Shown here in pieces: positions 2,589 through 48,033 of a stretch of 64,000 nucleotides of DNA. Position 1 is the stretch's first letter. Every line of letters starts with the position of its first letter. Made by a program: the position numbers and the translations under genes. Source of the stretch: an uncultured Verrucomicrobiae bacterium (lineage in GTDB: Bacteria > Verrucomicrobiota > Verrucomicrobiia > Limisphaerales > UBA11358); the NCBI GenBank assembly GCA_963719075.1, contig CAVRAN010000005.1, positions 55,310 through 119,309 on the forward strand, in the 5' to 3' direction. The notes beneath the pieces are model-generated. The model had not been told where the DNA came from, made no database searches, and was given only the letters and a program-made list of their open reading frames with translations.

Positions 2589-2743
2589 AATGAATGTGAG
2601 ACAACACTGGCAGACGTGAATGAATGAAGCATGGTTTCAAGGTTTCAAAATTTAAGCTACCCATGCCCAGTTAAGCCCGAAATACCACAACATATCTGAA
2701 AAATTTATCAAAGACCTAATCCCGATCTGTTTGCAAAATTCAA

Positions 2744-2770
2744 AATCCGTGTTCATCCGTGGTTAAAAAT
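2744..2770. repeat. CACGGAT-type doublet element
   Basis: On the minus strand it reads TTTTTAACCACGGATGAACACGGATTT. It belongs to the same family as the elements at 4427, 27180 and 29318. Confidence 0.5.
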
Positions 2771-2852
2771 GTTCGCGTGGTTCGCGGTTCACCTCATCCG
2801 CTGGAATAAAGCTTGAATTCCCCGTAAAAATTGTGATTGATGTCTGCCGTCT

Positions 2853-3446
2853 ATGCAAACCAAACCGAGACTCAAGTGGCAACATGCCCTGACCGTTGAA
2901 CGGCTCGCAATCATCCGCAATAACCTGGACAAAACCGACGCGGAGATCGCGCGGATGCTGGGAGTCAGCCGGACGGCGGTGCATTTTCAGCGGAAACGGT
3001 ATAAAATCGCCAAGGTCCACGGCACCATCCAACGCATCCAACGCAGGTTTGAACAAATACGGGGACTGAAACCGGGACTTACGGCCAAGGCAGCAGCCTC
3101 GCAGCTGGGGCTTGCGGTGGAAGTGGCTAAAAAATACGGAAAGCTGGCGGGTTATGAGTTCCATTTCATCAGCCGGCCCGCCGCGAGACATTTTTATTGG
3201 CGGAAGCGGATAAAAAATTTGCCGCCGCTGCTCACCATCTCCGCCGTGGCGCGGGAACTGGGAGTCAAGTATGGTCATGCCGCGCTGTTGTGTCACCGGC
3301 ACAAATACAAGGTCACGGTTCGCAACCGTAAGAAACCGGCGCGAGTGCCCATCCGGCGTTGGTTCAGCCGTCCGCACCATGAGCGCTGGCTCGCGTCACT
3401 GAAACCGGTTCCTGCGGCCGGCCACCGTCAAGCGGTCAGTCGTTGA
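2853..3446 (+). CDS. hypothetical basic protein with three HTH-like repeats
   Basis: 197-aa Arg/Lys-rich ORF with three internally similar segments (TDAEIARMLGVSRTAVHFQRKRY / TAKAAASQLGLAVEVAKKYG / TISAVARELGVKYGHAALLCHRHKY). Confidence 0.5.
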   Translation: MQTKPRLKWQHALTVERLAIIRNNLDKTDAEIARMLGVSRTAVHFQRKRYKIAKVHGTIQRIQRRFEQIRGLKPGLTAKAAASQLGLAVEVAKKYGKLAGYEFHFISRPAARHFYWRKRIKNLPPLLTISAVARELGVKYGHAALLCHRHKYKVTVRNRKKPARVPIRRWFSRPHHERWLASLKPVPAAGHRQAVSR

Positions 3447-3553
3447 ATCCTCCGCGTGTTTGGCATGGTTCGCGGTGGAACCTGTTTTTGTCCGTCTTTT
3501 TGACAGTGGTTCTTAAAAACAAAAATGCGTCTGAATTCGCACGCTAACACCCG

Positions 3554-6071: not shown

Positions 6072-6374
6072 TTAATGCCCGAACTTCTCCGACGGGAGCG
6101 GAATGATAATTGGCTGGGTGACTGGTTTTTGCTTCGGCGCAGGCGCGACGTAGCTACGTTGAATCAATCGCAATTCCTCCGCCTCTTCCTCGTCGAACTT
6201 CGCCACTTCTTTTTCCAGCATGAACGAGATTAAAAACAGCCCGTAAAAAACCGCGCCAAACGGCAGCACGACCGTCCACGCCGGATTGAGGTTGAAGCCG
6301 CCAAAGTTAATGTCGCTTCCCGCCACGAGTCCGGTCACGGAAACCGCCAAAAGACTTTTGGATAATGTTGTCAT
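6072..6374 (-). CDS. small membrane protein (hypothetical)
   Basis: Internal start MTTLSKSLLAVSVTG within ORF 6072..6605. It has two hydrophobic helices followed by an acidic tail (KFDEEEAEELR). Confidence 0.45.
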   Translation of the reverse strand: MTTLSKSLLAVSVTGLVAGSDINFGGFNLNPAWTVVLPFGAVFYGLFLISFMLEKEVAKFDEEEAEELRLIQRSYVAPAPKQKPVTQPIIIPLPSEKFGH

Positions 6375-7862: not shown

Positions 7863-7940
7863 AGTTTGTCTTTCATTTTTGATGGCAATTCATTTGCCGT
7901 CATTTATCTATGGCGACGTTACGCGCCGGGCCGGTCTTTA

Positions 7941-7961
7941 GCTATGGGGTGTAACCCTACT
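7941..7961 (-). promoter_or_regulatory. stress-promoter motif copy (aGTAGGGTTACACCCCATAGC)
   Basis: On the minus strand, 19 nt further on, lies TAACGT (7921..7916). It sits upstream of the small-peptide/CsbD/dodecin gene string. Confidence 0.65.
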
Positions 7962-29356: not shown

Positions 29357-29580
29357 CAAAATACTCGTAACGCGGGCGAATGAAAGACAATTTCCCCTGC
29401 CCTGCCCCTGAAAATTTTTCTATAAAATATTGACAACCCGCTCTGCTTTTGGTGAAGTAGGCGGCGCAACAGATGAAGGGATTTAGGACATCTGATGCCG
29501 GGTCAGGGCATTTATGGAAGGGCGCAGATTCGCTCACGCAATCCTTTTCTTCCGACACTCCCGCAAGTTTGCCGCTATAC

Positions 29581-29805
29581 CGCAACCTCCGGCTGTCATC
29601 CCCTACCCTCCGTTGTTGCGCGGCGGACTTCCGGCGTCTTTCGCCGGAGTTCCGGCGTGCCGCCATTACCTTCCGTCCCGCCGTCCCGAAGCTCCGGCGT
29701 CGCTCCACTAACCTCCGGCGTTCGACGCCGGAGGTTAGTCGTGGCACGGCGGAGCTTCCGCCATCAGCGCCGGAACATCCAATTTTGCCGCCGAAACTTA
29801 ACCAA
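29581..29805. repeat. 21-bp-period degenerate tandem array (about 11 units, core CGCCGGAnnTCCGGCG)
   Basis: TCCGG or TCCGT recurs at 29588, 29609, 29630, 29651, 29672, 29693, 29714, 29757 and 29778, all separated by multiples of 21 bp. It lies upstream of CDS 29871. Confidence 0.8.
29707..29739. other. perfect 14-bp-stem inverted repeat inside array
   Basis: ACTAACCTCCGGCG-TTCGA-CGCCGGAGGTTAGT. It is not followed by a T-run. Confidence 0.7.
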
Positions 29806-29870
29806 CACGCGGCAAATCAAGCAGTTATGAAATAAAATGTAAAAATAAACACTGAAAATGGAGAAAAATT

Positions 29871-30530
29871 ATGGGAAACGATTATATACCGCCAGCCGAT
29901 GCCGAATTTCACAACTGGCTCGGCAACTTCCACGATTACGTCAATACAAATGCCGCCACTCTGGGCCTGACGCCCGGCGACGTGACGCCTTTGACAAATT
30001 CCACGACCAATTGGAACACCGCCTATCCCGCGCATCAAAGCGCGCAAAACGCCGCCGTTGGCGCAAAGGCGACGAAGGACAATGCGCGCTCCGATGCCGA
30101 AAGCGTCGTGCGCCCGCTCGCGCAGCGATTGCAGGTCAGCCCCGGCGTGACCGATGCGCAGCGCAGCGCGATGCAAATCTCCGTCCGCGCCACCACGCGA
30201 ACGGCGGCGAGCATCCCCACCACCGCTCCGGCGGCCACTGTTGATACCAGCCAGCGCCTGCGCCATATCATCAACTACAAGGATTCAGCCGGCTCCAGAG
30301 CCAAGCCTGCGGGCGTGGCCTATTGCGAAATCTGGAACAAAGTGGGCGCGCCCGCGCCGACCGACGTGAGCCAGTTGACCTATCTGGGCAACGCCAGCAA
30401 AACGCCGCAACTGGAAGAATACACCGGCGCACAGGCGGGGCAGATGGTTTGGTATTGGCTGCGCTGGGTCAACACCCGAGGCGAAAAAGGCCCGTGGAGC
30501 GACCCGGTAAGCGCAACCATTCCGGGCTAG
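29871..30530 (+). CDS. hypothetical protein (family shared with 59469..60140), C-terminal FN3-like domain
   Basis: 219 aa with GGAG 8 nt upstream of the ATG. N-terminal FHNWLGNF ... LGLTPGDV and C-terminal WYWLRWVNTRGEKGPWSDPVSATIPG parallel the 59469 protein. Confidence 0.6.
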   Translation: MGNDYIPPADAEFHNWLGNFHDYVNTNAATLGLTPGDVTPLTNSTTNWNTAYPAHQSAQNAAVGAKATKDNARSDAESVVRPLAQRLQVSPGVTDAQRSAMQISVRATTRTAASIPTTAPAATVDTSQRLRHIINYKDSAGSRAKPAGVAYCEIWNKVGAPAPTDVSQLTYLGNASKTPQLEEYTGAQAGQMVWYWLRWVNTRGEKGPWSDPVSATIPG

Positions 30531-30607
30531 ACAAATAAAAAGTAACTGCTTGACGCGATGGCGGGTTTAATTACTAAATCCGCCATTGTCTTTTAGAAGG
30601 GAGCTTT

Positions 30608-31526
30608 ATGAAAACGCGCATTAAAAATCTGTTGCCCTTGCTGTTGCTGTTGGGATTACCCGCCGTGGTGCAAGCCCAAGACGCTTACAGCACCAATGCC
30701 GACGGCAGCATCTACACTTACAGCACCAACGCCGACGGCAGTGCCAACATCGTCGCTTACGCCGGGCCTCCCTGGGTGGTGACCATTCCAACCAATATCA
30801 ACGGCCTGACGGTCACCACCATCGGGGAGTATGCGTTCGATGGTCACGACCTGACCAGCGTGACGATTCCCGACAGCGTCACCAGCATCGGAGAATCTGC
30901 GTTCGGGGCTTGTTTCAGCCTGACGAGCGTGACGATTGGCAATGGCGTCACCAGCATCGGGGAAGCTGCGTTTGGAGAATGACAGCAGCCTGACGAACGC
31001 GACCATTCCCAATGGCGTCACCAGCATCGGGGGTGGTGCGTTCGTGTATTGTTCGAGCCTGACGAGTGTGACCATCGGCAACGGCGTCACCAGTATCGGT
31101 GAGGTTGCGTTCGGGGCTTGTTCCAGACTGACGAGCGTCTATTTCACGGGCAACGCTCCGTCACCAACCAATGATTCAACTGTTTTCGGCGGCAACCCCA
31201 ACGCCGACCCCGCGACTGTCTATTACTTGCCGGGCACCACGGGCTGGGGCGCGATGTTTGACGGTCTGCCGACCGCGCCATGGTTCCTTCCGAACCCGCT
31301 AATCCTTAACCACAGCGCCAGCTTCGGCGTGCAACCCGGCGGGTTTGGTTTCACCATCTCCTGGGCAACGAACGCTTCCGTCGTGGTGGAAGCCGCCACG
31401 AATCTGGCCAATCCGGTCTGGATTCCGGTGAGCACCAACACCACCCTGACCGGCGGCACGAACTATTTCAGCGATCCGCAATGGACGAATTATCCCGGCC
31501 GTTTCTACCGATTAAGCATGCCGTAA
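30608..31526 (+). pseudogene. BspA-type leucine-rich-repeat secreted protein, frameshifted; FYRL-type C-terminal domain
   Basis: Two ORFs (30608..30982 and 30936..31526) carry the same (I/V)[19 protein letters not shown] repeat. The frame breaks at GGAGAATGACAGC (~30976-30988), where one extra base creates a TGA. Confidence 0.7.
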
Positions 31527-31547
31527 AGGTAACAGGCAATAAACCCC

Positions 31548-33338
31548 TTATGCCTTCAACACTTCAATGAACGCCTCCTGCGGGATGTTCACGTTGCCGA
31601 TGGATTTCATGCGCTTTTTGCCTTCCTTCTGCTTCTCAAGCAACTTGCGTTTGCGCGAGACGTCGCCGCCGTAACATTTCGCCGTCACGTCTTTGCGGAA
31701 TGCGCTGATGGTTTCGGATGCGACGATTTTTCCGCCGATGGCCGCCTGGATTTTCACTTGAAACTGCTGGCGCGGGATGACTTCTTTCAATTTTTCCGCC
31801 AGCGTGCGTCCCCTGCCCTCCGCCTTCGTGCGGTGGACGATGCACGAAAACGCATCCATCGGCTCGGTGTTGACGAGCATGTCGAGCTTCACCATGTCGC
31901 TCGCCATGTAATCCGCCGGTTCGTAATCCATCGAGCCGAAACCGCGCGTGATGCTTTTGATGCGGTCGTGAAAATCAATCAGGATTTCGTTCAGCGGAAT
32001 CAGGCTCGTCAGCATCACGCGCTTCGCGTCGAGCGTTTCCGTGTGGTCAACCGCGCCGCGTTTTTCGGAGATCAACGCCATCATGTCGCCGATGTTTTCG
32101 TTCGGGCAAATCACGAACGCCTTCACCATCGGCTCCTCGATTTTTTCGATGTAAGTCACGTCGGGCATGAACGCCGGATTGTCCACCTGCTTGCGCGTGC
32201 CGTCCGAGAGCGTGACGTGATAGACCACGCTCGGATACGTCGCGATGATGTCCATGTCGTATTCGCGGCGCAAACGTTCCTGCACAATTTCCAGATGCAA
32301 CAATCCGAGAAAGCCGCAGCGAAAACCGAAGCCGAGCGCGACAGATGTTTCCGAGGAATAAACGAACGCCGAATCGTTCAACTTCAATTTTCCCATCGAA
32401 GATTTCAACGCCTCGTAATCCGCCGTGTTGATCGGATAAATGCCGCTGAACACCATCGGATGAATTTCCTTGAAGCCCGGCAGCACCGGCGACGGATTCC
32501 GCGCGTCGGTGATCGTGTCGCCCATCTTCACTTCCGCCGCGCTCTTGATGTTCGCCGTGAAATAACCCGTCTCGCCGACTTCAAGTTTCTCGCGCGTGTA
32601 AGGTTTCGGATTGAAGCTGCCGACTTCCTTCACCTCGACGGTTTTGCCGGAGTGCAACAGCTTCACCATTTGTCCGGCCTTCAATTCGCCGTTGAAAACG
32701 CGGACGTGCGTGACGACGCCTTTGTAAGTGTCGAAATAAGAATCAAAACCCAGCGCCTGCAAACTCGGTTCGCCCGTCGGCTTCGGCGGCGGGATGCGCG
32801 CGACGATCGCCTCAAGAATGTCCTCGATGCCGATGCCTTCCTTCGCGCTGCACGGGATCGCGAGTTCCGCCGGAATCGCCAGCACGTCTTCCAACTGCCG
32901 TTTCGCCTGCGGCACGTCCGCGTGGCCGAGGTCAATCTTGTTGATGACGGGAATGATTTCGAGATTCAGCTTCGCCGCCAGATGATAATTCGCCACCGTC
33001 TGCGCCTCGACGCCTTGCGCCGCGTCAATCACCAGCAACGCGCCTTCGCACGCACTCAAGCTGCGGGAAACTTCGTAGGCAAAATCCACATGGCCGGGCG
33101 TGTCAATCAGGTTCAGCTCGTAAGTCTCGCCGTTCTTGGCCGTGTAAAGCATCGTGACCGGATGCGCCTTGATGGTGATGCCGCGCTCGCGCTCCAAATC
33201 CATCGCGTCGAGCAACTGCTCCGACATATCGCGCGTGGCAATCGTGCCGGTGCGATGCAGGAGGCGGTCGGAAAGCGTCGTCTTGCCGTGGTCAATGTGG
33301 GCAATGATGCTGAAATTTCTGATGTGTGCGGCATCCAT
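31548..33338 (-). CDS. lepA: translation elongation factor 4
   Basis: 596 aa. IRNFSIIAHIDHGKTTLSDRLL is the G1 motif, and the sequence is LepA-like throughout. Confidence 0.97.
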   Translation of the reverse strand: MDAAHIRNFSIIAHIDHGKTTLSDRLLHRTGTIATRDMSEQLLDAMDLERERGITIKAHPVTMLYTAKNGETYELNLIDTPGHVDFAYEVSRSLSACEGALLVIDAAQGVEAQTVANYHLAAKLNLEIIPVINKIDLGHADVPQAKRQLEDVLAIPAELAIPCSAKEGIGIEDILEAIVARIPPPKPTGEPSLQALGFDSYFDTYKGVVTHVRVFNGELKAGQMVKLLHSGKTVEVKEVGSFNPKPYTREKLEVGETGYFTANIKSAAEVKMGDTITDARNPSPVLPGFKEIHPMVFSGIYPINTADYEALKSSMGKLKLNDSAFVYSSETSVALGFGFRCGFLGLLHLEIVQERLRREYDMDIIATYPSVVYHVTLSDGTRKQVDNPAFMPDVTYIEKIEEPMVKAFVICPNENIGDMMALISEKRGAVDHTETLDAKRVMLTSLIPLNEILIDFHDRIKSITRGFGSMDYEPADYMASDMVKLDMLVNTEPMDAFSCIVHRTKAEGRGRTLAEKLKEVIPRQQFQVKIQAAIGGKIVASETISAFRKDVTAKCYGGDVSRKRKLLEKQKEGKKRMKSIGNVNIPQEAFIEVLKA

Positions 33339-33419
33339 TTACAAATCTCGAATGTCGAGCGCAACAGGATAATCGGAAAACGATTGAAGAAAAGGAAATT
33401 TGGCCGACTTGAGCAAACA

Positions 33420-33659
33420 TCAAGCCGCAACAGCAGCTTCATGTTTCAGAACCAGCAACTCCGCACGTTTCAATTCGGTTAAAGCCAGCGTTTTGCCGTT
33501 GGAATCAAGAAATTCCACCTCGAACACGCCCGGAGCGAGAACATCAACGATCGTGCCGACTTGCCCGACGCCCAATCCTTCCGCAGGCTTGTCGTCAAGC
33601 AATGCCACAATATCCAATAATTTTACAGGCGCATTAAGCACACTGTTTTTATGGCACAA
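33420..33659 (-). CDS. DUF4926 domain protein (putative antitoxin-like partner)
   Basis: 79 aa. VGQVGTIVDVLAPGVFEVEFLDSNGKT matches the DUF4926 pattern. It overlaps the upstream gene by 11 nt. Confidence 0.7.
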   Translation of the reverse strand: MCHKNSVLNAPVKLLDIVALLDDKPAEGLGVGQVGTIVDVLAPGVFEVEFLDSNGKTLALTELKRAELLVLKHEAAVAA

Positions 33660-33912
33660 AACAAGTGACTAATCTAGGAAAATCTTCTTCCGGGCGGACA
33701 TTCCAAACGCTTCTTACGAGTGCAGATTTATCGCCACGATTCAGAATAAAATCTAAAATATACCGCTGGCCATGATCTGTCTTTCGACCGAAACGGCAAT
33801 CATGTGAGCGGGCGACTGCCAGCAATTGTTCGCGCAACCAATCCGCATCATTGCGAGTCAGGCCAAGCGCCGATGCAAAAACGCGTGCCTTGTGTTTGCC
33901 CTCTTTATGCAC
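33649..33912 (-). CDS. DUF6883 domain protein (putative toxin-like partner)
   Basis: 87 aa. GKHKARVFASALGLTRNDADWL...YILDF...VWNVRPEEDFPRLVTCFV matches the DUF6883 pattern. Confidence 0.7.
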   Translation of the reverse strand: MHKEGKHKARVFASALGLTRNDADWLREQLLAVARSHDCRFGRKTDHGQRYILDFILNRGDKSALVRSVWNVRPEEDFPRLVTCFVP

Positions 33913-33995
33913 GACATCAAGCGATTAATCGCGCAATTTTGTGATGTCCACAAAAGCGCCATTGGAATTCGGCAATTTCATTTTATGAATTCCTA

Positions 33996-35273
33996 TTACA
34001 GCAATGTTTCCGCTGATTTCTTTTCAAGAAGCGATTCAAGATACCAACGACGAACTTCTGAAGTTAATTGCTGATAGACTTGCGGGTCACGACCGACACT
34101 GTGCGGGTCATCATTATTTGCATCACTTGCGTTCATCAAACTTCGGATGAGTTTTGGACCATATTTATTAAAAAATACGAATGGGTCTGTAAGCCATTCA
34201 AATTTTCCTTCTTTCTCAACTAAAAGAACACGGAAGCCAGAAATGAGAGGAATACTTAAACCTTTATCAATTGGAACATCACCTTCGACCGGCTCGGATG
34301 CCTTAAGAAAATAATAAGTGGCTTTAGCTCTTGAATTACGCTTGTCCTTTGCATCTTGAGCTTCTTTTGTTAATCCAAACTTTCCACCCTTTCCCGCTTC
34401 ATCAGGAGCATTGTATTTTGATTTGAAGTTCAAGCGAACATGGTCATGTAGACGCATGATGTCCTTGCATATTGGAGCTAATTTCCTAAATCCATGCCGG
34501 TCGTCATCAGCGACAAAGGCTTGAAGCATCTTGCCTGCATTCTTATATGCGTCTTGAGCAGGTTTTTCATCTGCAAAAAGCCATGGATTGACAGCGCTGA
34601 TAACTTGAACCACGTCAAGAATGCCCACTGGCTCTGGATCGTTTTCACTAACCCTAATGCTTTTTGCGAAATCCTTGCCTAAAGCCTCAAGCAGCCAATC
34701 AAACTTATCGCGATAACTTGCCAGCGTCCAAGCCTTGAGTGCCACGCTAAAATTTCTCGCTTCAGCAATGTCGGCAAGATCGGCTTCAATATTCTCAAGA
34801 ATTTCGAGGTGAACAAATTGGTCTGGAAAAACACGCAATTCTTTATCAATCGGGTTGGTTTTTCCGCTTTTACCTGCTGCAATAATTTTTCCAACTCGAT
34901 GGCGCTCTTCACTAACTGCGCTTTTAATACATTCGTAAGTATGTGCGCCATCAAGAATGCCAAATTGTTCTTCATCACGAGGAATGACCAGTGTCAGTTC
35001 ATTTTTTTTGTTGTCAAACTCACAATGTTTTGCCGAAATTGTGATTCCACGATTCTTGAGATGAAACTTGCCATCGTTTGATTGTAAAGAAGCGACAATC
35101 CTTTTCGGCACTGCGCCACCGGTGATTTTTGGAGTTCGAGGATCGGGGTCTAACGGAATGTCGAATGGGAGGTCATTCACATTTACAAAAGCGTGAACAA
35201 TTCGAATCTTTTCGTTATTGGGATCTTTCAGGGAACGAGTTCGTTCCGCCAAGGCAGGTATTCTGTATTTCAT
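33996..35273 (-). CDS. AIPR/DGQHR-like (ParB-fold) hypothetical protein, possible abortive-infection factor
   Basis: AT-rich ORF. FGILDGAHTYECI resembles DGQHR/DGQQR-type motifs of ParB-fold nucleases. The start is uncertain: ATG 35273, TTG 35405 or ATG 35492, with the ORF open to 35540. Confidence 0.5.
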   Translation of the reverse strand: MKYRIPALAERTRSLKDPNNEKIRIVHAFVNVNDLPFDIPLDPDPRTPKITGGAVPKRIVASLQSNDGKFHLKNRGITISAKHCEFDNKKNELTLVIPRDEEQFGILDGAHTYECIKSAVSEERHRVGKIIAAGKSGKTNPIDKELRVFPDQFVHLEILENIEADLADIAEARNFSVALKAWTLASYRDKFDWLLEALGKDFAKSIRVSENDPEPVGILDVVQVISAVNPWLFADEKPAQDAYKNAGKMLQAFVADDDRHGFRKLAPICKDIMRLHDHVRLNFKSKYNAPDEAGKGGKFGLTKEAQDAKDKRNSRAKATYYFLKASEPVEGDVPIDKGLSIPLISGFRVLLVEKEGKFEWLTDPFVFFNKYGPKLIRSLMNASDANNDDPHSVGRDPQVYQQLTSEVRRWYLESLLEKKSAETLL

Positions 35274-35504
35274 ATGTTTGTTGCGAGAGGCATTAAAGCC
35301 TGCTGCATTTATTTCTGCATTATCAGCTAGAGCACTCCATGTGCTGCCAGTGACAAGTTGAAGAATAGGGGTTTTTGATTTCGGCGCAACTTTTTTCTTA
35401 AACAAAAAAGCAAAGCCGCTTTCGCAGCCCGGCTTGTGAACCTGCCTCGTTTCTATTTCTTCACTGCGTCCGGCCGCTCCTTCGAGGAACATCCCCAAAA
35501 TGCA

Positions 35505-35525
35505 GGTAGGGTTACACCCCATAGC
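35505..35525 (+). promoter_or_regulatory. stress-promoter motif copy (GGTAGGGTTACACCCCATAGC)
   Basis: TAGCGT lies 19 nt downstream (35545..35550). It is upstream of the BON gene. Confidence 0.65.
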
Positions 35526-35597
35526 GGAGAACGGACGCATCGCTTAGCGTGTTTCAAGTATTAAAAACAAACAACTCAACAATCGAATTAAAACATA

Positions 35598-36374
35598 ATG
35601 AAAACAACCCATACGCTCGCCTTCATGGCGACGGTAAGCACAATGTTAATCACCAGCGCGCCCCTGCGCGCCGCCGACATGGACAGCCGCATCGAATCGT
35701 CCGCTGCGAACTCCTATACTTTCAAAAACTACCTCAAGGACGATTCAATCAAGACTGATTCCAAGGACGGTGTCGTCACCCTGACCGGCACAGTTGCCAA
35801 TGCGTCGCACAAATCCATGGCCGAAGATACCGTGGCAAGTTTGCCAGGCGTCAAGAGCGTGGACAATGAACTGCTGATCAATGGTGAACAACCGGCTGAA
35901 CATTCCGACGCCTGGATCACCATGAAAGTAAAAACCGCGCTGCTATTCCATCGCAACGTGAGCGGCACCGGAACCACCGTGTATACGGATGGTGGCGTCG
36001 TCACCTTGCAAGGTGTGGCCAGTAGCATGGCCGAAAAAGAACTCACTACCGAATACGCCAAGGACATTGACAATGTTAAATCGGTCAATAACGAGATGAC
36101 GATTGCTTCGACGCCGGCAGCGCCAGACGCAACCGTAGGCGATAAAATTGATGACGCCTCAATCACGGCTGAAGTCAAGTCGTCATTGATGTCGCATAGC
36201 GCGACCAGCGCCATACATACCGGAGTTACGACTACGGACGGTATTGTCACCTTGACCGGCATTGCGAAAAACGATGCTGAAAAGAGCCTCGTCACCAAGC
36301 TCACCGCCGACATCAACGGCGTGACCAGCGTGGTCAACAACATGACCATCGCCGTGCCCGTGGCCTTGAACTAA
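35598..36374 (+). CDS. BON domain protein (OsmY-like), secreted
   Basis: 258 aa with a signal peptide and three BON repeats (DGVVTLTGTVANASHKSMAEDTVASLPGVKSVDNEL and similar). Confidence 0.85.
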   Translation: MKTTHTLAFMATVSTMLITSAPLRAADMDSRIESSAANSYTFKNYLKDDSIKTDSKDGVVTLTGTVANASHKSMAEDTVASLPGVKSVDNELLINGEQPAEHSDAWITMKVKTALLFHRNVSGTGTTVYTDGGVVTLQGVASSMAEKELTTEYAKDIDNVKSVNNEMTIASTPAAPDATVGDKIDDASITAEVKSSLMSHSATSAIHTGVTTTDGIVTLTGIAKNDAEKSLVTKLTADINGVTSVVNNMTIAVPVALN

Positions 36375-36973: not shown

Positions 36974-36994
36974 GGTAGGGTTTCACCCCATATA
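36974..36994 (+). promoter_or_regulatory. stress-promoter motif copy (GGTAGGGTTTCACCCCATATA)
   Basis: GATGCT lies 19 nt downstream (37014..37019). It is upstream of the kinase cluster. Confidence 0.6.
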
Positions 36995-37061: not shown

Positions 37062-37760
37062 ATGAAACAAAAACTAATCGGGTTGTCACAACAATATGTG
37101 ACGGCGTTGCGAAAACACCTGAAGCAGGGACCAAGTGCGAGCTTGCAGCCGGCGTTGGGACTGGGACGCCGGGCGGTCGTCCTCGGACTGGAGACACTGG
37201 AACTGGCCCGGATTCACGAGCGGGCACTCATCACACTGAAACTGTCCCGCAGCAAAAATGGAAAGCTCAAGCGCGCGAAGATTTTTTTTACCGAGGCCAT
37301 CACCCCGATTGTGGAGACGCACCGCGCCGCGCGGCAGACCAAAGTTCACTTGAGCCGGCTGCAGGAAACGCTGGGCCAGCGCACGGAGGAACTGGCCGCC
37401 ACCAACCGCCAGTTGCAACGCGGCGTCATCCGGCGCAAGGTCATGGAAGATGCCGCCGAGAAAAACGGGCAGCACCACGACAAATGCCTGGAGGAATCGC
37501 TCCAGTTGCAGAAGCGTTTGCGGCAACTGACGCACCGGGTGCTGGCGGCGCAGGAGGATGACCGCAAGCACATCAGCCGCGAACTTCAGGATGAAATCGG
37601 CCAGACTCTGCTGGGGATCAATGTCCGGCTGCTCTCGTTGAAACAGCAGTCCCGGAGCAACACCAAGGGTCTTAAGAATGAAATCGCCAGCACGCAACGA
37701 TTGGTGCTAAAGTCGGCCAGGTCCGTGCGGCGGGTCGCGCGTGAATTCGGCAGCTCATGA
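37062..37760 (+). CDS. truncated histidine-kinase paralog (RsbU_N-like domain plus degenerate HisKA_3, no ATPase domain)
   Basis: 232 aa. The N-terminal ~110 aa align with the next gene. The H-box reads ISRELQDEIGQ, with Gln in place of the phospho-acceptor His. The protein ends before any HATPase_c domain. Confidence 0.7.
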   Translation: MKQKLIGLSQQYVTALRKHLKQGPSASLQPALGLGRRAVVLGLETLELARIHERALITLKLSRSKNGKLKRAKIFFTEAITPIVETHRAARQTKVHLSRLQETLGQRTEELAATNRQLQRGVIRRKVMEDAAEKNGQHHDKCLEESLQLQKRLRQLTHRVLAAQEDDRKHISRELQDEIGQTLLGINVRLLSLKQQSRSNTKGLKNEIASTQRLVLKSARSVRRVAREFGSS

Positions 37761-38968
37761 AACAACGCAAATTTTCCAGACGCTATCAGGCGGCGTTGCT
37801 GGCGTATCTCAAGCAACGTTCGAGCGCGCGCCTGCAACCGGCGCGCGGCATGGGCCAGCAGGCGCTCACCGCTGGCCTGCAGACGCTGGACATTGCCAAG
37901 CTCCATGAGCAAATCCTGGTCACGCTGGTGTTGCCGGGCCGTCCGCCCGGTAAACGCACCGCGCTCATCAAACAGGCGGGGATTTTCTTTACCGAGGCGA
38001 TCACGCCGATCGAGAAAATTCATCGCGGTGCGCGGGAGGCCGCCATCCACCTGAACCAAATCGTCGAGATGTTGAGCCAGCGGACTGTGGAGCTGGCCGC
38101 CTCGAACCTGGACTTGGGAAATGAAATCGCCCAGCGCAAGGCGATGGAGGCCGCGCTCAAAAAAAGCGAGTTGCATTACAGCAGATTGCTGGCGCAGTCG
38201 GAACGCCTGCAGGAACAGTTGCGGCAATTGTCCCGCCAGATTCTTTTGACGCAGGAGGAGGAACGCCGCGAGATCAGCCGCGAGCTGCACGATGTCATCG
38301 CCCAGACTTTAGCCGGCATCAACGTCCGGCTGGCTACGTTGAAAAAGGACGCCGCAGTCAACACCAATGGTCTTGACCGCAACATCGCTCGCACGCAAAA
38401 GCTGGTGGAAAAGTCGGTCAACATTGTGCACCAGTTCGCGCGCGAATTGCGCCCGGCGGTGCTGGACGATCTTGGATTGATTCCAGCCTTGCATTCGTTT
38501 GTGAAAACCTTTTCCAAGCGGACGCGCATCCACGTTCACATGAAAATTTTTGCGGGTGTCGAACAGTTGGACACCAACAAAGACACCAACAAAGACACCA
38601 ACAAAGACACCAACAATAAAAAGCGCACGGTGCTTTATCGCGTCGCCCAGGAATCGCTGAACAATGTCGGCCGCCACGCGAAAGCCAGCCGCGTGGAATT
38701 GAACATCCAGAAAATTCATCAAGTCGCCCGCATGGAAATCAAGGACGACGGCAAATCTTTTCAAGTCGAGCGCGTATTGCGCGCACGCGGAAACAAACAA
38801 TTAGGACTGCTCGGCATGAGGGAACGAGTCGAAATGGTCGGCGGCACTTTTTGCGTCGAATCCGCACCCGGCCATGGCACCACCGTCCGCGTGGAGATTC
38901 CATTCGCCCACGTCCGGAAAGACGCGCTGAAAAAATCTAGTAAAAAAACCACACTGGAATGCCCATGA
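37757..38968 (+). CDS. sensor histidine kinase (RsbU_N-like N-terminal domain, HisKA_3, HATPase_c)
   Basis: 403 aa, ATGA-coupled to the upstream paralog. It has the H-box ISRELHDVIAQTL, an N-box (QESLNNVGRHA) and a G-box (APGHGTTVRVEIP). Confidence 0.85.
   Translation: MKQRKFSRRYQAALLAYLKQRSSARLQPARGMGQQALTAGLQTLDIAKLHEQILVTLVLPGRPPGKRTALIKQAGIFFTEAITPIEKIHRGAREAAIHLNQIVEMLSQRTVELAASNLDLGNEIAQRKAMEAALKKSELHYSRLLAQSERLQEQLRQLSRQILLTQEEERREISRELHDVIAQTLAGINVRLATLKKDAAVNTNGLDRNIARTQKLVEKSVNIVHQFARELRPAVLDDLGLIPALHSFVKTFSKRTRIHVHMKIFAGVEQLDTNKDTNKDTNKDTNNKKRTVLYRVAQESLNNVGRHAKASRVELNIQKIHQVARMEIKDDGKSFQVERVLRARGNKQLGLLGMRERVEMVGGTFCVESAPGHGTTVRVEIPFAHVRKDALKKSSKKTTLECP
38570..38617. repeat. 12-bp in-frame microsatellite (GACACCAACAAA x4) inside kinase gene
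   Basis: It encodes DTNKDTNKDTNKDTNN just upstream of the N-box. Confidence 0.9.
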
Positions 38969-40029: not shown

Positions 40030-40050
40030 GGTAGGGTAACACCCCATAGC
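40030..40050 (+). promoter_or_regulatory. stress-promoter motif copy (GGTAGGGTAACACCCCATAGC)
   Basis: TATACT at 40069..40074 and the ATG at 40083 give a leaderless geometry. Confidence 0.7.
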
Positions 40051-43868: not shown

Positions 43869-43889
43869 GGTAGGGTAACACCCCATGGC
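43869..43889 (+). promoter_or_regulatory. stress-promoter motif copy (GGTAGGGTAACACCCCATGGC)
   Basis: CATTAT/TATCGT lies 20-23 nt downstream. It is upstream of the CBM48-DUF883 operon. Confidence 0.65.
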
Positions 43890-48012: not shown

Positions 48013-48033
48013 GGTAGGGTAATACCCCATACC
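48013..48033 (+). promoter_or_regulatory. stress-promoter motif copy (GGTAGGGTAATACCCCATACC)
   Basis: ATTATG/TATGGC lies 20-22 nt downstream. It is upstream of the transglutaminase-like gene. Confidence 0.6.

Follow-up and report, generated by a model that had tools for sequence, protein, structure and literature searches.

A candidate mobile cassette next to lepA in an uncultured Verrucomicrobiae bacterium joins an AIPR gene to a DUF6883/DUF4926 pair with an interrupted toxin gene

Here we describe a three-gene islet located between lepA and a BON-domain gene in a 64,000-nt stretch of DNA from an uncultured Verrucomicrobiae bacterium (assembly GCA_963719075.1, contig CAVRAN010000005.1, positions 55,310 to 119,309 of the forward strand), which as a whole is referred to below as the window. 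Judged from its composition, distribution and junctions, the islet is a horizontally transferred cassette of approximately 2.05 kb (window ~33407..35465), in which a gene of the AIPR family is followed by a DUF6883/DUF4926 pair that is predicted to encode an RNase toxin and its immunity protein or antitoxin. We consider the islet, with moderate confidence, to be a mobile operon of two self-sufficient modules, the AIPR gene and the pair, which are co-selected and co-transferred. In the window the toxin gene is interrupted at codon 19, and the locus now very probably consists of an intact AIPR gene under selection, an orphan antitoxin gene and a fresh toxin pseudogene.

Results

Three co-oriented genes of foreign composition

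As had been noted in the initial annotation of this DNA, which was made from the letters alone, three co-oriented open reading frames (ORFs) lie on the minus strand between lepA and the BON gene, and the three families named at that time, AIPR, DUF6883 and DUF4926, all scored above the Pfam curated thresholds. The earlier observation was therefore partly confirmed, while the gene models required correction, the automated calls (498-514 aa for AIPR, 87 aa for DUF6883) being misleading at this locus. The features of the cassette and its two flanking genes are as follows:

33996..35273, minus strand: AIPR-family gene, 425 aa (Pfam AIPR; start from homologue alignments)
33649..33981, minus strand: DUF6883 / BECR-Tox3 gene for a predicted RNase toxin, 110 codons, with a premature TAA at codon 19 (translation; Pfam after stop repair)
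33925..33927, minus strand: premature TAA, toxin codon 19
33649..33912, minus strand: residual 87-aa GTG ORF of DUF6883
33420..33641, minus strand: DUF4926 gene, presumed immunity protein/antitoxin, intact, 73 aa (Pfam; conserved GTG start)
35274..35412, minus strand: conserved 5' leader, presumed promoter region (cross-context identity)
35413..35465, minus strand: 5' edge of the transferred DNA (terminator scan; homology limits)
33356..33419, minus strand: 3' edge of the cassette with the lepA-upstream element (homology to the cassette-free locus L001; junction alignment)
31548..33338, minus strand: lepA, native conserved gene adjoining the cassette
35598..36374, plus strand: BON-domain gene, other flank of the islet

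The GC profile agreed with the earlier remark that the segment is more AT-rich than its flanks, since the islet holds the 12 lowest-GC 2-kb intervals of the entire 64 kb (0.438 vs. 0.528 ± 0.028 outside, z = -3.3). The GC content at third codon positions (GC3) was 0.34 in the AIPR gene and 0.43 and 0.50 in the other two cassette genes, compared to 0.65-0.77 in lepA, the BON gene and the neighbouring kinase genes, and in every host the cassette has a GC content of 43.5-44.8% as opposed to 53-56% in its flanks. The nearest relative in the set of species-representative genomes, L001 (lepA 95.7% identical at the nucleotide level and 99% at the protein level), has no cassette 5' of lepA, and its homology to the window stops at 33406, 14 nt from the DUF4926 stop codon. 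Likewise, none of the three cassette genes was found in 80 retrieved species-representative lepA loci. The foreign composition, the absence from these loci and from L001, and the occurrence in at least four contexts described below all speak for the horizontal acquisition that had been proposed.

The cassette recurs in several genomic contexts and appears modular

The trio of genes recurs in several soil bacteria. In L081, a contig from another metagenome that is 99.3% identical to the window, the arrangement is the same; in L152-L156 the trio is also located 5' of lepA with different left flanks; in L087, L088 and L082 it lies between metH and PPDK; in L089 it is found beside response regulators and a glycosyltransferase, and in L090 on a short contig. 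By nucleotide alignment (81-94% identity), the cassette is thus present in at least four genomic contexts, and in every copy the order of the genes is kept, with spacers of 14-16 nt between AIPR and toxin and of 7 nt between toxin and DUF4926.

In a survey of 68 loci the pair followed the AIPR gene wherever the AIPR protein was at least 81% identical to that of the window and nowhere that this identity was 73% or lower. At 78% toxin identity no AIPR gene was found beside the pair, which followed a ParA-like gene in one case and a truncated recA in the other. This identity-dependent co-occurrence suggests that AIPR and the pair are independent modules that were joined in one young clade and have travelled together since. 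The two stand-alone pairs are located directly after the ParA-like gene in L159 (3211..4562) and directly after a 174-aa truncated RecA in L161 (3447..4562), and conserved housekeeping genes recur as neighbours; the recA fragment beside the L161 pair may be another recombination scar. The contig of L149 (201..2588) begins inside the 3' end of an AIPR gene and carries a GAPDH gene approximately 0.8 kb downstream of the pair. In L150 (2034..3085), an internal deletion of approximately 1 kb has reduced the AIPR gene to the leader and roughly the C-terminal 110 codons, while the pair is intact. As far as these alleles show, each part of the cassette can decay alone, the window having lost the toxin and L150 the AIPR gene.

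The history of the cassette also seems to include recombination between its variants. The AIPR and antitoxin genes of the window are closest to those of L152 (94% nucleotide identity), a sibling strain with 99% identical LepA and 97% identical AIPR, whereas the window toxin gene is closer to that of L087 (90%) than to that of L152 (86%). The resulting mosaic (window 33420..35273 compared with L152 and L087) points to recombination between cassette variants.

The predicted DUF6883 toxin gene carries a premature stop codon

The Pfam match of the 87-aa ORF to DUF6883 (6e-20, 72 bits) begins only at profile position 24, and further upstream an in-frame ATG at 33981 is followed by 18 codons and then by a TAA at 33927..33925. 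With Tyr in place of this stop, the match covers positions 1-108 of the 110 in the profile, and its score increases from 72 to 94 bits (9.4e-27). Nearly all DUF6883 homologues (among 120 listed) are exactly 110 aa long, with only one other protein of 87 aa, and position 19 is Tyr in 90 of the 90 aligned homologues. Codon 19 is TAT or TAC in L082, L087, L088, L089 and L090, L152 carries an intact 110-aa toxin (P0125), and among the cassette lineages examined TAA occurs at this position in the window and L081 only. Both a use of TAA as a sense codon and an assembly error were considered and rejected, since lepA, AIPR and BON genes all end in TAA as their normal stop and the allele is also present in the independent assembly of L081. 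The dN/dS of the remnant was computed without an alignment, since the stop codon shifts the protein-guided alignment, and with 0.04-0.17 against intact copies it was similar to the 0.06-0.14 found among the intact copies themselves.

Because of the 110-aa homologues, the invariant Tyr19, the TAT or TAC codons elsewhere, the use of TAA as a normal stop and the low dN/dS, we interpret the toxin gene of the window as a recent nonsense pseudogene. The 87-aa ORF, which had been annotated as the DUF6883 gene itself, is the 3' part of a gene of 110 codons that is interrupted at codon 19 and only one base away from an intact toxin, a single-base change having turned the codon for Tyr19 into TAA. The toxin is very probably null in the window, and since its gene is a pseudogene, this copy of the cassette would not be a normal addiction or abortive-infection module, in disagreement with the anti-phage or addiction islet envisaged for this genome.

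To what kind of protein the intact gene may give rise was approached with P0121, an intact homologue with 92% identity to the window toxin. Its AlphaFold2 (AF2) model has a predicted local distance difference test score (pLDDT) of 97 and shows three helices followed by a four-stranded sheet. Its best matches in the PDB were the CdiA-CT toxins from K. pneumoniae 342 and from E. coli 3006 (TM 0.65-0.67 over the full length, probability 1.0), and RelE toxins came next with weaker fold matches. According to a review, these two CdiA-CT toxins are colicin-D-like BECR-fold tRNases that act on tRNA-Ile and have K/Y/H...R/T active sites. In DUF6883, the residues K15, Y19, H25 and R103 are invariant and T106 is near-invariant among the 90 aligned homologues, matching the K/Y/H...R/T of these contact-dependent inhibition (CDI) toxins in order and spacing. 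The model thus assigns to intact DUF6883 a BECR RNase fold nearest to the CdiA-CT tRNases, and the mutated Tyr19 is probably catalytic, as judged by the order and spacing of residues rather than by superposition. DUF6883 has been described as a new family, BECR-Tox3, with a conserved downstream DUF4926 as presumed immunity gene, and DUF6883 domains are also found fused to phage MuF proteins (2026 preprint, bioRxiv 10.64898/2026.08.28.747851); the family assayed in that study was BECR-Tox2 rather than BECR-Tox3.

The DUF4926 gene and the predicted toxin-antitoxin pair

DUF4926 was identified by a Pfam match of 6.3e-21, which agrees with the family named for the second small ORF. The earlier model of 79 aa depends on a TTG start at 33659 and results in an 11-nt overlap with the toxin ORF, whereas every cassette copy has a GTG start 7 nt beyond the stop codon of the toxin gene, which gives a protein of 73 aa. 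The conserved position of this GTG makes the 73-aa product the most likely one, with a 7-nt gap in place of the overlap, and the 79-aa TTG reading a possible and less favoured one. The gene has a dN/dS of 0.07-0.38, its product has no recognised DNA-binding domain, and a PDB sequence-profile search found no solved relative. The BECR fold modelled for the intact DUF6883 homologue, together with the prediction of DUF6883/DUF4926 in the preprint, supports the idea in the initial annotation that the small genes form a toxin-antitoxin system, and the pair is accordingly described here as a predicted toxin with its immunity protein or antitoxin.

The AIPR protein

The large protein matched Pfam AIPR (PF10592) with a score of 63.1 bits, the cut-off being 25, and an E-value of 4.6e-17 over residues 133-443 of a 514-aa ORF, which correspond to residues 44-354 of the 425-aa protein, and the same family was matched by 35 of 35 aligned homologues. 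In alignments of these 35 and then of 111 homologues, the proteins begin at Met90 (MKYRIPAL) of the 514-aa ORF. Models of 514 or 498 aa were rejected, as their N-terminus lacks support from homologues and extends across the BON promoter motif as well as the edge of the cassette; codons 1-89 of the 514-aa ORF are thus spurious, and the alignments place the gene at 425 aa. Of the protein of ~425-500 aa with a DGxH(T/R)-type motif that had been noticed initially, the motif and the shorter size therefore stand, while the longer ORF does not. The motif, FGILDGAHTYECI, is encoded at 34926..34964 within the AIPR gene. Its residues D108, G109 and H111 are invariant in the 111 homologues, and G-I-L-D-G-A-H-T sits between the strand 105-108 and the helix 110-134. 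Compared to the DGxHR type, Arg is replaced by Thr, and a distant group has DGGTT, without His. The dN/dS against other cassette copies was 0.04-0.12, which indicates that the AIPR gene is under strong purifying selection within the cassette.

In the literature the AIPR family is associated with abortive infection, comparative genomics places AbiU1/AIPR/COG1479 in the ParB superfamily, and fusions of the AIPR/ParB domain with other nucleases are described as frequent and the family as linked to restriction-modification (R-M) systems. The initial annotation had drawn on both the abortive-infection link and the ParB relationship, which match this literature, and weak but consistent signals were found here. 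DndB (PF14072) was the only recurrent secondary Pfam match (4 of 35 AIPR members, best E 0.0083), and in the BFVD library sub-threshold matches (E 0.4-0.8) were to DndB-like, GmrSD-N and ParB/Srx proteins, the only significant matches of the AIPR model being an uncharacterised protein from a phage and an 'AIPR protein' from a podovirus. A ParBc or DUF262 match was absent from the Pfam search of the 35 members. Since a Foldseek search of the whole AF2 model (pLDDT 91.5) against the PDB gave nothing below E 0.25, the ParB or nuclease fold suggested for the large protein was not recovered among solved structures, and the ParB-fold claim rests on the literature and on these weak signals. PDB sequence-profile searches of AIPR, DUF6883 and DUF4926 likewise gave nothing above chance level.

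An N-terminal HEPN RNase domain has been described for AIPR proteins (Makarova et al. 2012). This domain is absent from the AIPR protein of the window, which starts 43 residues before the AIPR match and shows no second Pfam domain at E up to 10, and distant members of 376-455 aa likewise have no HEPN domain. Restriction-modification genes were found in none of the contexts read, where the neighbours include lepA, BON, metH, PPDK and response regulators. Relatives with 25-30% identity are stand-alone genes of ~400 aa that enterococci and lactobacilli carry on small plasmids, where they are annotated as 'AIPR family protein' and each adjoins a divergent helix-turn-helix (HTH) regulator.

Acquisition next to lepA

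A possible route of entry was provided by the sibling strain L152, in which a second lepA 5' end of native type, spanning -9 to nt ~114-117 and sharing 94% identity with window lepA, is located just upstream of the cassette. Between nt 7 and 264, 60 positions set the full-length lepA of L152 apart from that of the window and of L001; from nt 285 onward the identity is 96-99%, and the gene thus reads as a mosaic with a foreign tract at nt 1-264 and native sequence from nt 285. The lepA' fragment and the foreign tract together suggest that a donor fragment entered that comprised the cassette, the lepA upstream region and the lepA 5' end, and are consistent with a single homologous crossover within lepA combined with one illegitimate joint. 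Such homology-facilitated illegitimate recombination is well established. Insertion into lepA by a site-specific, integrase-type event was rejected because the native fragment ends at nt ~114-117 while the foreign tract runs to nt 264-285, and because no site-specific recombinase was found in or beside any cassette copy read. A probable role of lepA is accordingly that of a homologous anchor for transfer. In addition, part of the lepA-upstream element, CAAATTTCCTTTTCTTCAAT, is retained at the end of the cassette copies found away from lepA, and this 3' remnant suggests a lepA-linked ancestor.

Other genes also vary around lepA. Immediately upstream of the lepA' fragment, L152 carries a pair of UPF0175 antitoxin and DUF3368 PIN-like toxin genes (2605..3506), so that its lepA upstream region seems to hold two addiction or defence modules side by side. 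On the side opposite the cassette, the window contains ~2.2 kb with a gene for an LRR_5 protein and a 219-aa gene (29395..31551), absent from L001, where the next shared block lies ~310 nt from lepA, and L152 has GH9 and ThuA genes on that side. With this variation on either side, lepA has the look of a conserved island set in hypervariable flanks. In L001, two copies of the lepA-upstream element (6242..6288 and 7865..7915) bracket ~1.6 kb of apparently frameshifted glycosidase-like ORFs, which may represent a different insertion at the same hotspot.

Cassette boundaries and the 21-nt motif

The shared DNA starts at ~33407; homology to L152, L155 and L156 extends to 35442, and weakly to ~35465, and homology to L087 ends at ~35414-35440. 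At the 5' edge, a terminator scan found a terminator-like hairpin with a T-run at 35413..35430. The leader at 35274..35366 is 84-94% identical across contexts as compared to 81-83% for the AIPR coding sequence. Rfam gave only a chance-level match on 33200..35700, and a small ORF in the leader was dropped, as it was not conserved. At the 3' edge, the lepA-upstream element CAAATTTCCTTTTCTTCAATCG lies at 33381..33402, inside the edge, with one copy in the window and two in L001; it occurs once in the 64 kb, and the possibility of a common genomic repeat was discarded. Terminal inverted or direct repeats at the edges were also considered and set aside: two terminator-like 16-nt sequences (33422..33437 and 35413..35428), which lie 1991 nt apart and form hairpins, are identical at only 12 of 16 positions, possibly by chance.

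The islet had also been said to end exactly at a copy of a 21-nt 'stress motif'. This motif, GCTATGGGGTGTAACCCTACC, is present in the window in six copies, none being expected by chance:

7941..7961, plus strand: GCTATGGGGTGTAACCCTACC copy
35505..35525, minus strand: GCTATGGGGTGTAACCCTACC copy
36974..36994, minus strand: GCTATGGGGTGTAACCCTACC copy
40030..40050, minus strand: GCTATGGGGTGTAACCCTACC copy
43869..43889, minus strand: GCTATGGGGTGTAACCCTACC copy
48013..48033, minus strand: GCTATGGGGTGTAACCCTACC copy

All six copies are located 24-120 nt upstream of plus-strand genes (BON, HisKA_3 kinases and response regulators), and the motif probably serves as an operator or promoter element in a regulon of the stress or two-component type. 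Because all six copies precede plus-strand genes, the copy at 35505..35525, which sits 73 nt before the BON gene, was taken to be part of the native promoter region of BON. It lies 40-60 nt beyond the transferred DNA, whose end is at ~35442-35465 instead of the 35540 first given, and the apparent coincidence of motif and islet end arose from the over-extended 514-aa ORF. Among the neighbouring genes, the ORF of a HisKA_3-type sensor kinase (37757..38968) contains an inserted short tandem peptide repeat, DTNKDTNKDTNKDTNN, at ~38540..38590.

Discussion

Two modules in one mobile operon or a single system

Our preferred reading of the islet is that of a mobile operon in which two self-sufficient modules are co-selected and co-transferred. 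In intact copies, a single promoter in the conserved leader would drive all three genes, and DUF4926 would bind and neutralise the RNase. When expression of the cassette stops, either by loss of the cassette or by phage-induced shut-off, the RNase would be freed and cleave tRNA or other RNA, and the resulting growth arrest would stabilise the cassette and might abort infection. AIPR most likely acts alone, as the single gene on small plasmids of lactic acid bacteria would do. In the window, the cassette may have reached the lepA 5' region by a lepA-anchored crossover and an illegitimate joint, as deduced from L152. The two-module reading is favoured over an integrated system because the modules usually occur alone elsewhere and because each of them decays alone.

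Several observations weigh against this reading or parts of it. The trio has remained together over a dS of ~0.8-0.9 and several relocations, which suggests a possible functional coupling. At E up to 1, PADLOC gave no match to any protein of the trio, so that the check for a known defence system did not recognise the candidate defence module, and NCBIfam and PHROGs gave no match for any of them either; the absence of a significant PDB match for the AIPR model belongs here as well. No lepA' fragment or scar is found in the window, whose lepA is native, and neither the joint on the BON side of the window nor the move of the cassette to non-lepA sites is accounted for. Finally, the 87-aa toxin remnant keeps every invariant residue 3' of the stop, and a GTG 12 nt after the TAA would permit a truncated product by reinitiation.

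Among the alternatives, the one that survives best, and which we regard as possible but considerably less probable, is an integrated three-component abortive-infection system. Here AIPR would sense phage DNA or nucleotides and release or activate the BECR RNase from DUF4926, the trans-encoded RNase would stand in for the N-terminal HEPN domain of canonical AIPR proteins, and the window, with its effector lost, would hold a disabled copy. This idea draws on the long co-inheritance of the trio and the ParB/BECR precedent in Menshen, a system of a ParB-family protein, an ABC ATPase and an interchangeable nuclease effector that includes BECR domains. It gains from the operon-like spacing in every copy and from the persistence of the trio in at least four contexts despite recombination within the cassette. 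In addition, AIPR proteins are described in the literature with an N-terminal HEPN RNase and with frequent fusions of the AIPR/ParB domain to other nucleases, and the match here starts at residue 44 of 425 without another domain. However, both modules stand alone in most relatives, the toxin was lost separately in the window and the AIPR gene in L150, and no fusion protein or evidence of interaction was found. The AIPR gene is also still intact in the window and L081, which speaks against this reading, although the elapsed time may be too short. In its most specific form, a HEPN-less ParB-superfamily AIPR sensor would unleash a BECR-Tox3 tRNase from DUF4926, making the cassette an undescribed split version of HEPN-AIPR and a minimal analogue of Menshen, with lepA and similar conserved housekeeping genes as recombination anchors in its spread among Verrucomicrobia of the soil; we put this forward only as a tentative and rather unlikely proposal.

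A further alternative concerns the toxin, which might still be alive if reinitiation at GTG 33912 produced an active or modified 87-aa protein. The reading frame of 87 aa is open and retains each invariant residue beyond residue 24, the GTG is close to the stop, and the same allele is found in L081 and an 87-aa cluster, P0141 (99% identity), in another data set. However, the truncation removes helix alpha1 (residues 13-20) and the conserved K2, A9, K15, L16, R17 and Y19, of which K15 and Y19 correspond by position and pattern to the catalytic Lys and Tyr of the toxins nearest in structure, and nearly all of the homologues listed have 110 aa. We consider a surviving toxin improbable.

Two other explanations have very little in their favour. 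That the three are ordinary resident genes without a role in conflict, AIPR being for example a DndB-like DNA-binding regulator, the other two small proteins with functions unrelated to each other and the low GC content incidental, could draw on the description of DndB, a relative of AIPR, as a transcriptional regulator and on the failure of PADLOC to recognise the trio, but this is already largely refuted by the distribution and composition data (absence from the nearest relative and 80 other lepA loci, the same DNA in unrelated contexts and at ~44% GC in every host). The toxin fold with its matches to CDI and RelE toxins and the lepA' scar of a recent insertion in L152 also speak against it, and it is very improbable. 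A remnant of a prophage or phage satellite instead of an independent cassette seems just as remote: a 65%-identical AIPR homologue (L086) is located among phage-like genes, a podovirus 'AIPR protein' has a similar fold in BFVD and DUF6883 is fused to phage MuF proteins, but none of the three proteins has a PHROG match, an AIPR-profile scan of 2.9 million viral contigs found no relative and there was otherwise only one weak phage record, and the same trio occurs in every context without adjoining phage genes or integrase.

Significance

For about two decades, AIPR has been labelled 'Abi' with no mechanism attached. Should the trio prove to be a functional unit, the AIPR domain would gain a testable partner, namely an RNase effector with its own inhibitor, and the cassette would become a compact, easily synthesised three-gene candidate for the anti-phage repertoire; intact versions have been identified that are small enough to be synthesised and tested. 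The lepA' scar and mosaic lepA of L152 further suggest that a small cassette lacking a recombinase can pass from one genome to another with a conserved essential gene serving as its homologous anchor. Such cassettes appear to decay piecemeal, beginning with the toxin here and with AIPR in L150.

Comparison with known systems

With the annotated stand-alone plasmid genes of the AIPR/AbiU1 family (PF10592), the window AIPR shares a near full-length alignment, and the motifs FHLLNRG and G-I/L-I/L-D-G-G/A-H/T-T are common to it and to distant members. In contrast to what is known of this family, it has neither the N-terminal HEPN domain nor the linkage to R-M genes nor the divergent HTH regulator of the plasmid copies, and a predicted toxin-antitoxin pair comes next in its putative operon. 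A relationship to DndB and ParB-Srx is suggested by literature that groups AIPR and DndB's N-terminal domain in one family of the ParB superfamily; however, there are no dnd genes nearby, the DGAHT motif lacks the Arg of DGQHR, and there is no significant match to a solved ParB fold.

The small genes resemble the BECR-Tox3/DUF4926 pairs of the preprint in that they belong to the same two Pfam families, with the toxin gene first, tight spacing and a BECR fold in the intact homologue. They differ in the AIPR neighbour, which is not mentioned there, and in the premature stop of the window toxin; toxicity and immunity are predictions in both cases. CdiA-CT Kp342 and EC3006 (PDB 6CP9 and 6CP8) gave the best fold matches and have a similar K, Y, H ... 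R, T spacing, but the sequence identity is only 12-17%, and these toxins are C-terminal domains of large secreted proteins delivered from cell to cell, whereas DUF6883 is predicted to be a free cytoplasmic protein of 110 aa. Type II toxin-antitoxin systems of the RelE/ParE kind likewise comprise two small co-directional genes with a BECR-fold RNase toxin, in line with the weaker RelE fold matches, and they typically decay by losing the toxin before the antitoxin. In the cassette, however, the toxin gene precedes that of its partner, no DNA-binding domain is recognised in DUF4926, and membership is not seen at the sequence level.

Menshen resembles the cassette in the pairing of a ParB-superfamily protein with a BECR RNase effector. 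However, an ABC ATPase is found neither in nor beside the cassette copies, a PIN domain is likewise absent, PADLOC finds no Menshen component, the effector is BECR-Tox3 instead of Tox2, and the cassette has a dedicated immunity gene. In summary, the parts of the cassette are of kinds already known, AIPR as an Abi-associated family and DUF6883/DUF4926 as a pair predicted in the preprint, and what is new is the three-gene architecture in which they are joined, which is absent from PADLOC and unmentioned in the preprint.

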